Source: Nitrospinaceae bacterium
Lineage (GTDB): Bacteria > Nitrospinota > Nitrospinia > Nitrospinales > VA-1
Direction of reading: 5' to 3'
NCBI GenBank assembly: GCA_029261515.1
Contig: JAJDBE010000199.1
Location: 1 to 17,746 of the forward strand
Length of the DNA stretch: 17,746 nucleotides
The notes beneath the pieces were generated by a model. That model was not told the origin of the DNA and did not search any database. It saw nothing but the letters and a program-made list of their open reading frames with translations. This document shows positions 3,424-4,443 of this stretch, one piece after another. The position numbers and the translations under genes are program-made. Each line of letters begins with the position of its first letter. Position 1 is the stretch's first letter.

Positions 3424-3577
3424 TCATTTCGGGGCAACAAGAGGATTCCTTTTTTTTGGGAAATAATTCCACCACGAAATCAATGAGTGATTGCAATTTA
3501 CTTCTAGTGCATTCACAGGCTTCCTCAGCAGAACCCGTTTCCTCCTCTATCTTGTCCCAATCCACAAATTTTTTCAT
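3389..3577 (-). CDS. Small (62 aa) acidic Cys-containing protein of unknown family, translationally coupled to the HgcA-like gene
   Basis: Its ATG (3575-3577) overlaps the TGA of the upstream gene (3574-3576) in an ATGA arrangement. The sequence MKKFVDWDKIEEETGSAEEACEC...KKKESSCCPEMNEKQNGQCNDN has a CxC, a vicinal CC (nt 3434-3439) and one further Cys. I recognise no family. The coding call rests on the coupling geometry and operon context only. Confidence 0.45.
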   Translation of the reverse strand: MKKFVDWDKIEEETGSAEEACECTRSKLQSLIDFVVELFPKKKESSCCPEMNEKQNGQCNDN

Positions 3578-4443
3578 AGCAACAATGAACCTCCATAAAA
3601 TAAAGCCAAAAATGCAAAAATCCCAGCAGTAAGCTTTCCCGAATTCTGGTTTTGCCCGAGATGAGAATGGCCCTGGGAGTCGAATCCAATAAAAGCACCC
3701 AAAGCAATAATCCCGATTGCTATCTGGATTTGCAAAACTGGATCTGTTGAGAAAAACAGCATCAATGCCAGAAGCGGTACGGTGAGCATCAACCCCTTGT
3801 ATAGCAATCTTTCGAAGGGAATAAAATGTTCAATTAATTGCATACTAAAAGCGAAGTACCAGACCAAAAGGAGGGCTTGAAGCCACCACTCGGAAGCAAA
3901 GAGTAAAATTGGAAGTATGCAGACCAATGAACAGAAAACCGCATGGCTGAGACCCATTTTAAAACGCTCCCAGTACCCATATTCTAGAGCCTGCATGTCT
4001 TTGGACTTGCGTAAACCGTTATCCAAAAATTCCTTTAAGTCGGTAAAGTAAACGGGACCGTAAATTCCCTCCCAACCATGTTCTTTCAGGATTTTTCTTT
4101 TAACCCCAGCCACAGACAATTGCGGCAGTATCAAACGAGTATGATTCACCAGCTCCCTAACATTATAAACCTTTAAATGGGCGAGAACCGATTCGGTGGT
4201 AAAAATACCTTCAGCCGCGGCACACCAGACGTTGGTGCCTTTGGTATTGACCACCAGAAGAAAGCAATCTATATGCTGTTTTTCCAAATAATTTTTTAAA
4301 TGCCGGACTGTGTAATCAAAATTGCAGGTGACCAGGACCGGCGAAGATTTATCTGGATGACCAATGGCAATGGTTTCGGGTTCGCAGGGAAACCGTGCAA
4401 ATCGAAATAGCGTTTGATAAATGTCTTTAATCCAACCGATCAT
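3574..4443 (-). CDS. HgcA-like protein: N-terminal corrinoid-binding (CFeSP large-subunit-like) domain with a Cys cap-helix motif, plus a C-terminal domain of about 5 TM helices
   Basis: 289 aa. Residues 71-79 read NVWCAAAEG (nt 4207-4233, hand-checked as aac gtc tgg tgt gcc gcg gct gaa ggt). The HgcA signature is N(V/I)WCA(A/G)GK, so Cys74 is conserved. Flanking segments resemble HgcA as I recall it (PVLVTCNFDYTV..., HTRLILPQLSVAGV, YGPVYFTDLKEFL). Residues about 163-289 form roughly five hydrophobic helices. The ATG overlaps the methyltransferase stop (ATGA at 4440-4443). Confidence 0.75.
   Translation of the reverse strand: MIGWIKDIYQTLFRFARFPCEPETIAIGHPDKSSPVLVTCNFDYTVRHLKNYLEKQHIDCFLLVVNTKGTNVWCAAAEGIFTTESVLAHLKVYNVRELVNHTRLILPQLSVAGVKRKILKEHGWEGIYGPVYFTDLKEFLDNGLRKSKDMQALEYGYWERFKMGLSHAVFCSLVCILPILLFASEWWLQALLLVWYFAFSMQLIEHFIPFERLLYKGLMLTVPLLALMLFFSTDPVLQIQIAIGIIALGAFIGFDSQGHSHLGQNQNSGKLTAGIFAFLALFYGGSLLL

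Follow-up and report, generated by a model that had tools for sequence, protein, structure and literature searches.

The DNA analysed here, called the window in what follows, is a stretch of 17,746 nucleotides (nt) from a Nitrospinaceae bacterium (contig JAJDBE010000199.1 of assembly GCA_029261515.1). It carries a gene whose product resembles the mercury methylase HgcA. This gene almost certainly encodes an HgcA-like protein of the Nitrospina/Nitromaritima type, i.e. a membrane-anchored corrinoid protein of a paralogous, HgcAB-like clade that is associated with the methyltransferase CpaM (corrinoid protein-associated methyltransferase). Judged by the curated family models and by the phylogeny, the protein is not an orthologue of mercury methylase HgcA. 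We note that the window is a rediscovery, a further member of a known clade and not a new gene, because its HgcA-like protein belongs to the same clade as the Nitrospina proteins of Gionfriddo et al. and Villar et al.

The architecture of the protein was deduced from profile matches, hydropathy and an AlphaFold2 model: a corrinoid-binding domain (approximately residues 17-140) is followed by five transmembrane helices (approximately residues 157-288). The Pfam family CdhD (PF03599) matches residues 17-131 with an E value of 2.4e-17, and residues 19-140 can be aligned, free of gaps, with the corrinoid domain of the large subunits of the corrinoid iron-sulfur protein, CFeSP (2h9a, 4c1n and 4djd; E values of 2e-13 to 1e-11). 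In this alignment Cys74 is paired with chain residue 374 of 2h9a, which we take to be the Thr position that Parks et al. aligned with Cys93 of HgcA. The model, which is cofactor-free and was built on an alignment of 34 sequences, has a pLDDT of 88.8 and a pTM of 0.77; residues 75-77 of the cap helix are the sole part singled out as having low confidence. When it was compared with the PDB, the published HgcAB model 9a0b_A was among the best matches (E value 5.6e-12, 310 alignment columns), and the CFeSP corrinoid domains matched with a root mean square deviation (rmsd) of 1.6-2.7 Å over approximately 125-132 columns, at 30-33% identity.

An initial annotation of the window, made from the sequence alone, had reported the cap-helix motif NVWCAAAEG at residues 71-79, with Cys74 kept and AE standing for the GK of HgcA, and the translation agrees with this reading. 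The alternative set beforehand was that the motif is a chance match on another fold; the CFeSP alignments, the Pfam match and the model all point to a CFeSP-type fold. The NVWC match is not fortuitous, because the model resembles both 9a0b_A and the CFeSP corrinoid domains. The same annotation had counted about five hydrophobic helices after the corrinoid domain. Hydropathy indeed gives five hydrophobic segments (a run at approximately 161-208, then approximately 212-233, 233-257 and 270-289), and the model resolves the run into two helices, the complete set being 157-182, 184-203, 213-231, 235-258 and 269-288. As regards a ferredoxin domain, the protein has no Fer4 match in Pfam, and the alignment shows a loop and one helix instead.

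The assignment to a paralogous clade rests on family models, a tree and the cap helix. The protein scores 138.7 bits on the HgcA model NF040863, i.e. below the cutoff of 275, while nine genuine HgcA proteins, taken from an exhaustive search of 1.84 billion representatives, score 363-459 bits. The best-scoring family is NF043039 (HgcAB-like fusion protein), with 233 bits over profile positions 1-233 of 350, which is also below the respective cutoff (285). A neighbour-joining tree was calculated from 124 corrinoid-domain columns, rooted with two CFeSP sequences and bootstrapped 100 times. Genuine HgcA proteins are monophyletic in 100% of the bootstraps, with the window protein outside, and the Nitrospina clade is likewise monophyletic in 100%. 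The Nitrospina clade joins the fused or CpaM-linked sequences in 69% and the genuine HgcA proteins in 5% of the bootstraps. The identity of the corrinoid domain is approximately 47% to the fused group and approximately 38% to genuine HgcA. The paralogous status proposed in the initial annotation thus agrees with the failed HgcA model, with the best-scoring family and with the grouping in the tree.

The cap helix shows the same division. In genuine HgcA it reads NVWCAAGKG(T/S)F, and the GK pair is invariant in the nine aligned sequences. In the fused/CpaM group NVWC is followed by small residues, without lysine at HgcA's position, where most sequences have Gly or Ala. In the Nitrospina clade the helix reads NVWCAA(A/V)EG, so that Glu78 is, on these alignments, a marker of the clade. 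The replacement of GK by AE had earlier been described as a charge reversal; this description holds in comparison with genuine HgcA, but not in comparison with the fused clade, which itself has no lysine here. A further difference lies at the C terminus. The fused relatives run from a G(Y/F)D.P.WSPL segment into the ferredoxin domain, whereas the Nitrospina proteins have GFDSQGHSHLGQNQ and then a fifth helix. In other words, the extra C-terminal transmembrane helix of the Nitrospina lineage sits where the fused relatives carry their ferredoxin domain.

Three known systems can be set beside the window protein. With the HgcA of confirmed methylators (NF040863; Parks et al. 2013) it has in common the CFeSP-type corrinoid domain, the NVWCAA motif with its Cys, and the C-terminal membrane domain. 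It differs in that it lacks the N-terminal extension of 33-47 residues that precedes the model match in the HgcA proteins examined, in having AE for GK, in having no adjacent hgcB, and in having a partner methyltransferase that depends on S-adenosylmethionine (SAM). With the HgcAB-like fusion (NF043039) and its CpaM (NF043040), a group that includes fused hgcAB from Pyrococcus furiosus and Methanococcoides methylutens, the corrinoid domain and the first four transmembrane helices can be aligned, CpaM is encoded upstream in both cases, and the lysine of the HgcA cap helix is absent from both. The 2x[4Fe-4S] domain of the fusion is missing from the window protein and is replaced by the loop DSQGHSHLGQNQ and the fifth helix; moreover, the window clade has its own Glu78 and its own cassette partners, namely a small Cys protein, a YHS protein and MerR control. 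The CFeSP large subunit (AcsC/CdhE; 2h9a, 4djd) is alike in its corrinoid-binding Rossmann-like domain, with the identity and rmsd given above, but the window protein has neither the N-terminal Fe-S domain nor the TIM barrel, carries Cys for the cap-helix Thr, and is membrane-anchored.

The absence of an hgcB partner beside the gene, stated in the initial annotation, was found again with a wider scan. In the six frames of the window, CX2CX2CX3C motifs occur only in an SdhB/FrdB-like open reading frame (ORF) at 16467-17408, and in 22 related loci no genuine ferredoxin motif was seen up to 7-8 kb on each side where the contig allows.

The relatives of the protein place it in a well-defined group. 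It is 80-92% identical to Nitrospinaceae proteins labelled "HgcA-like". Among GTDB genomes the identity over all 289 residues is 81% to Candidatus Nitromaritima SCGC AAA288-L16 and 80% to Nitrospina sp. LS_NOB, and the relatives found there are mostly metagenome-assembled genomes of Nitrospinaceae, Nitrospina and Nitromaritima. A search of 5.8 billion proteins gave approximately 54 clusters at 58-92% identity, after which the identity drops sharply to 43% or less; nearly all matches below the drop are longer and have 4Fe-4S domains. The full-length homologues with at least 75% identity are all 289 residues long with an intact motif, and the named ones are Nitrospinaceae.

Both of these reference genomes were named as carriers of an HgcA-like gene by Villar et al. 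(2019, bioRxiv 10.1101/648329; 2020), with the identical numbering N71/C74. The neighbours drawn by the same authors (Villar et al. 2019, 2020) are MerR1, DUF169, a UbiE-type methyltransferase and YHS, and the neighbourhood found in the window (MerR, DUF169, UbiE-type methyltransferase, HgcA-like, YHS) is that of their figure legend. Villar et al. credit the "HgcA-like" protein to Gionfriddo et al. 2016. Lin et al. (2023, PMC10083202) placed the Nitrospina-like sequences in a smaller clade of fused hgcAB and reported that a neighbouring hgcB is missing in all Nitrospina. Nitrospina hgcA transcripts are present in Tara metatranscriptomes (Tada 2026, citing Villar 2020). A possible membership in the Nitrospina clade of Gionfriddo et al. 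2016 had been raised in the initial annotation, and is supported by the 80-81% identity to the genomes that Villar et al. list and by the shared numbering. The clade itself is published knowledge and not new, its context being given in Villar et al. and its placement and missing hgcB in Lin et al. 2023. Compared with the published Nitrospina/Nitromaritima HgcA-like proteins, the family (80-92% identity), the length of 289 residues, N71/C74, the neighbours and the lack of hgcB are the same, and nothing essential differs.

The closest partner of the hgcA-like gene is cpaM, whose stop overlaps the hgcA-like start by 4 nt; its product has the SAM-binding motif VLDLGCGTG. A CpaM-type gene also lies upstream of a fused HgcAB-like gene in all four unrelated contexts that we examined (our loci L023-L029), directly so in three of the four, and in L025 and L026 a DJ-1/PfpI gene lies between the two. 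In the planctomycete operon of this group (L023-L026; approximately positions 3466-7233 in L025) the order is an ArsR-type regulator, a 140-residue protein, a GCCGSP membrane protein, CpaM and the fused HgcAB-like protein. The unannotated 140-residue protein contains conserved Cys residues as well as a hydrophobic stretch in its N-terminal part, and the GCCGSP of the next gene lies in a hydrophobic stretch. This operon is a further metal-style setting in which the paralogue clade occurs. Moreover, the representative search returned single chains in which CpaM, an HgcA-like protein and a ferredoxin are joined (P0127, P0145, P0177 and P0185), and others in which CpaM and an HgcA-like protein are joined without ferredoxin (P0147, P0153, P0155 and P0184). 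Because such single-chain fusions exist, there is strong evidence that CpaM and the HgcA-like protein would work together. The initial annotation had suggested that the electron or methyl supply differs from that of HgcAB, and the adjoining member of the CpaM family speaks for a supply based on SAM. In the literature we found no relevant paper on CpaM by name, and searches linking ubiE with hgcA, or DUF169 with mercury, gave Villar et al. as the only relevant result. Neither the CpaM family assignment nor the single-chain fusions of CpaM and HgcA-like proteins, with or without ferredoxin, are mentioned in the papers that we searched.

The hgcA-like gene is the fourth gene of a minus-strand operon with the order DUF169, MerT-like, cpaM, hgcA-like, 62-residue Cys protein and double-YHS protein, and a merR-like gene is divergently oriented (Table 1). 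Together these genes form a low-GC cassette at 2971-6642 (approximately 3.7 kb), with a GC fraction of 0.44 as compared to 0.54 and 0.52 in the flanks. When the window is compared with L003 (Nitrospinaceae OFTM181), which has the same flanks, the cassette proteins are 87-94% identical and the flanking LigA and HtrA 72-78%. This gap suggests either horizontal exchange of the cassette between lineages or a very strong constraint on it.

Table 1. Coordinates of the hgcA-like gene, its motif and the other cassette features in the window
Feature	Position	Strand	Basis and remarks
YHS protein, two YHS/TRASH-type Cys repeats and C-terminal GCC tail	2971..3423	-	Pfam YHS, E 3.5e-12
62-aa Cys protein	3389..3577	-	Invariant core DWD..E..CECTRS, CC pair near the C terminus; ATGA overlap with the stop of the hgcA-like gene
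HgcA-like gene	3574..4443	-	ATG start, intact ORF, 289 aa
Cap-helix motif NVWCAAAEG (aa 71-79)	4207..4233	-	Read from the translation; Cys74 included
CpaM, class I SAM-dependent methyltransferase	4440..5072	-	NF043040, 257 bits (cutoff 180)
MerT-like inner-membrane transporter	5083..5415	-	Pfam MerT, 36.7 bits (cutoff 32.9); CC in the first helix (SICCVGP), second pair AECCET
DUF169 protein, first operon gene	5431..6144	-	Pfam PF02596, E 3e-23
Promoter-like site for the divergent merR-like gene	6165..6192	+	TTCCCA-16-TATAAT, ends just before the dyad; consensus match only
Predicted MerR-type promoter	6190..6220	-	TTGAAC (6220-6215), 19-nt spacer, TATATT (6195-6190); sequence reading
MerR-family regulator, 137 aa	6229..6642	+	NCBIfam scores; Cys84, Cys119, Cys127; start at MKNREK

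The slot between DUF169 and CpaM varies among the related loci (L003, L007-L009, L011, L012, L014-L017) and may hold a thioredoxin-like protein, MerT, a MerP-like protein or an insertion sequence (IS). The thioredoxin/glutaredoxin-like protein of the slot has 89 residues and the motifs CPIC, CPSC and ECC. The slot holds a MerP-like HMA protein in L017 and an IS transposase in L009, and it is empty in L001, L010 and L013; MerT, MerP-like HMA and thioredoxin-like proteins occur in L017 and others. MerT is optional and is found only in the window, L017 and L021. In L009 the cassette is split by the IS element, and the L009 copy of the small protein no longer has its CC pair. Cassette copies were also seen on contigs labelled as Flavobacteriales, Nitrospirales (the complete 4.6-Mb chromosome OY820905.2), Nitrospirae, Methyloglobulus and Chloroflexota (L007, L009, L019-L022); these odd labels could reflect mis-binning or transfer beyond the Nitrospinaceae.

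The cassette is predicted to be driven by a MerR-type promoter. A perfect 11+11 dyad, GAACCTGTAGT-A-ACTACAGGTTC, is located at 6196-6218, inside the promoter spacer of the 84-bp divergent region. Promoters that are activated by MerR characteristically have a long spacer that contains the operator. The same arrangement of promoter and dyad is kept in at least 10 related loci, and a variant, TTGACC-19-TATATT with another dyad, is found where a different MerR paralogue is present. The three Cys residues of the regulator presumably correspond to the three metal-binding Cys of MerR/CadR/PbrR-type sensors. Its scores on the NCBIfam models are 116.7 for MerR (TIGR02051; cutoff 150.85), 113.8 for CueR and 112.7 for CadR/PbrR, all of them below the cutoffs. 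A comparison with the mer operon (MerR/MerT/MerP/MerA) reveals a divergent MerR-family regulator, a promoter with a 19-bp spacer and a dyad, a MerT-like importer and, in L017, a MerP-like protein as common features. In contrast to the mer operon, neither MerA nor MerB is found among the ORFs of the window, CpaM and the HgcA-like protein take the catalyst's place, and the regulator and MerT are below the NCBI cutoffs, the MerT-like protein being below all MerT cutoffs of NCBIfam. As for RNA elements, an Rfam scan of the window gave no cobalamin riboswitch and no other RNA family, and no tRNA was found in the window.

The 150 bp between the hgcA-like gene and the YHS ORF, which the initial annotation had passed over, hold a 62-residue ORF with the sequence elements MKKFVDWDKIEEE...CECTRSK...SSCCPE. 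This gene, which is translationally coupled to the hgcA-like gene, comes after it in 17 of the 17 related loci that extend to this point, relatives at 58-64% identity among them, and the CC pair is present in most copies. In frame, the ratio of nonsynonymous to synonymous substitution rates (dN/dS) lies at 0.07-0.11, whereas it exceeds 1.2 in both other frames. Since the ratio is low in this frame only, the 62-residue ORF is a real gene under strong purifying selection. Its 84 homologue clusters are all at least 68% identical, none of them is named, and the protein has no significant match in Pfam and no match in NCBIfam.

The next gene encodes the YHS protein, which is probably a metal-binding hand-off protein, as its conserved cysteines suggest. 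Every Cys of this protein is retained in all of the loci, as is the terminal CC pair, even in the 43%-identical copy of L002, and the HgcB-like part of at least one fused protein, P0100, ends with the same GCCSPD tail.

Translation of the DUF169 protein probably begins at the ATG at 6138, which would give 235 residues: a GGAG directly adjoins the first ATG, and P0353, a database protein of 235 residues, is identical over its whole length. Four Cys and one His are invariant (C46, H64, C67, C167 and C185). The model of this protein has a pLDDT of 91.4, and its comparison with the PDB gave no fold match. Relatives with 44-51% identity were seen in six further contexts. In one of them (L031) the DUF169 relative has CpaM, a fused HgcAB-like gene and a P-type ATPase as neighbours. 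In four (L030, L033, L034 and L035) it lies beside B12-binding radical SAM enzymes; two of these four are preceded by ArsR-type regulators, one adjoins MerT-HMA and CopZ-like genes, and one has MerB and MerR nearby. The remaining context has no such neighbours. It is conspicuous that, in metal-handling neighbourhoods, this DUF169 subfamily is found together with cobalamin-dependent methyl-transfer enzymes of two unrelated kinds. Several features of the cassette, namely the coupled 62-residue gene, the 19-bp MerR-type promoter, the slot for MerT, MerP-like or thioredoxin-like proteins, and the Cys-Cys end of the YHS protein, are not mentioned in the papers that we searched.

The best overall explanation of these data, to which we would give an even chance, combines the paralogue identity with a metal-induced relay of methyl groups from SAM to cobalt to a metal. 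A soft divalent metal would bind the three-Cys MerR-type regulator and activate the promoter with the 19-bp spacer, and MerT-type proteins would bring the metal into the cell. CpaM would then move the methyl group of SAM to the Co(I) of the corrinoid held under Cys74, a step that we consider fairly likely. The next acceptor of the methyl group would be a thiol-bound metal; the small Cys protein and/or the CC tail of the YHS protein would present it, as stand-ins for the Cys-rich tail of HgcB, and Co(I) would be regenerated by electrons from an unlinked ferredoxin or flavodoxin. The main uncertainty of this relay is the acceptor; mercury is plausible, and Hg(II) as the actual acceptor is a possibility that we regard with some doubt. 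Taken as a whole, the cassette might be a mer-like, metal-induced operon in which a methylating pair replaces MerA. In such an operon Hg(II) or a soft metal would be sensed, imported by MerT and methylated via CpaM and the corrinoid protein, presentation of the metal would fall to the 62-residue and YHS proteins, and DUF169 would assist cobalamin-dependent methylases in general. This complete picture is tentative and, with all its parts, unlikely.

Several points weigh against the relay and against the placement on which it builds. The support of the tree for placing the Nitrospina clade with the fused/CpaM-linked sequences, 69%, is moderate. The MerT-like assignment is marginal, as it depends on the Pfam match, and the gene is missing from many cassettes. 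The metal of the regulator is not assignable by its NCBIfam scores, and the cassette encodes no electron donor. Cys patterns and gene order are the sole basis of the roles proposed for the 62-residue protein, the YHS protein and DUF169. The idea that the 62-residue protein is a detached Cys-rich tail of HgcB was found to be unsupported: a hidden Markov model of 18 orthologues gave a best E value of 5.9 in a search of 120 proteins, 66 of which were more distant, mostly ferredoxin-bearing relatives. What is left of this idea is a loose parallel, i.e. a CxC motif followed by a CC pair. The capacity of Nitrospina for methylation is unconfirmed, since no isolate carries the gene (January 2026 paper). 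Finally, cultures of Pyrococcus furiosus and Methanococcoides methylutens, which have fused hgcAB, did not methylate Hg (Villar et al.; Lin et al. 2023), and because of this the substrate of the clade may not be Hg.

The last point leads to the alternative that the SAM/corrinoid relay is right but that its acceptor is not mercury; it could be Cd, Pb, Zn, As, Sb, Se, Te or a non-metal, to which the MerR-like sensor would respond. Besides the negative cultures of the fused clade, the regulator scores equally on the MerR, CueR and CadR/PbrR models, ArsR- and TetR-type regulators head operons of the fused clade, a P-type ATPase lies beside one pair of CpaM and fused HgcAB-like genes, and DUF169 relatives are found beside B12-radical-SAM enzymes under ArsR-type regulators. 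The dyad, too, presumably resembles operators of the CadR/PbrR type more than the Tn501 mer operator. On the other hand, MerT-like, MerP-like (HMA) and, in Catenulispora, MerB and MerR genes are present in these neighbourhoods, and the three-Cys pattern of the regulator fits, in our understanding, a trigonal binding of Hg(II). We regard a non-mercury acceptor as somewhat unlikely.

Most ocean surveys assume something else, namely that the protein functions as an ordinary HgcA, which would obtain its methyl group from folate and use an unlinked ferredoxin of the HgcB type to methylate Hg(II). The protein does retain the CFeSP fold, the transmembrane domain and the NVWCAA motif, including the essential Cys, surveys report "Nitrospina hgcB" sequences in the same waters, and in surveys the abundance of hgcA correlates with methylmercury (MeHg). 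Yet the protein reaches 138.7 bits where the HgcA equivalog cutoff is 275, it falls outside the clade of genuine HgcA both in our tree and in Lin et al. 2023, and the GK of its motif is replaced. Moreover, the 22 loci contain no hgcB over the range given above, and the close association with CpaM, in some cases a fusion, speaks for a different source of the methyl group. A working HgcA of this kind is, in our estimate, improbable.

It is a good deal less probable still that the system operates in the reverse direction, as a demethylation or scavenging route independent of MerB in which methylmercury or a related compound would give up its methyl group to the corrinoid. Methyl transfer between corrinoid and Hg is chemically reversible in principle, and the context is mer-like and yet without MerA and MerB; nevertheless, a class I SAM methyltransferase as partner, sometimes fused, fits the donation of methyl groups and not their removal, and no supporting sequence evidence was found. 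Hardly credible is the notion of a decaying, non-functional remnant of a fused HgcAB-like gene, to which the missing ferredoxin domain and the split L009 cassette with its CC-less small protein might point, but the full-length homologues at 75% identity or more keep all 289 residues and the motif, the coupled small gene has a dN/dS of approximately 0.1, the cassette proteins of the window and L003 are more similar (87-94%) than the flanking LigA and HtrA (72-78%), and transcripts have been reported (Tada 2026).

In open-ocean metagenomes, no other "mercury methylation genes" are as abundant as the hgcA-like genes of the Nitrospina type (Villar et al. and later ocean surveys). Counting the Nitrospina-type genes as hgcA in such surveys is an assumption, because the curated models and the phylogeny make the protein a paralogue and not HgcA. 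The constant, sometimes fused SAM methyltransferase partner offers a concrete, testable source of the methyl group. The cassette is also small (approximately 3.7 kb, six or seven genes, with its own sensor and promoter), which makes its synthesis and a test of the whole cassette in a heterologous host feasible; previous efforts at transferring methylation with hgcAB alone were unsuccessful (Villar et al.), and in the literature we found no heterologous test of Nitrospina hgcA. If true, the mer-like methylating operon would give microaerophilic nitrite oxidisers a route to methylmercury that is inducible, fed by SAM and free of a ferredoxin domain, and such a route could account for the formation of MeHg in oxic and suboxic ocean water.

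Elsewhere in the window, and with no evident link to the cassette, an ArsR-family regulator (10303-10623, plus strand) overlaps an AHSA1/SRPBCC-family gene (10620-11096, plus strand) by 4 nt, which is a common pair.

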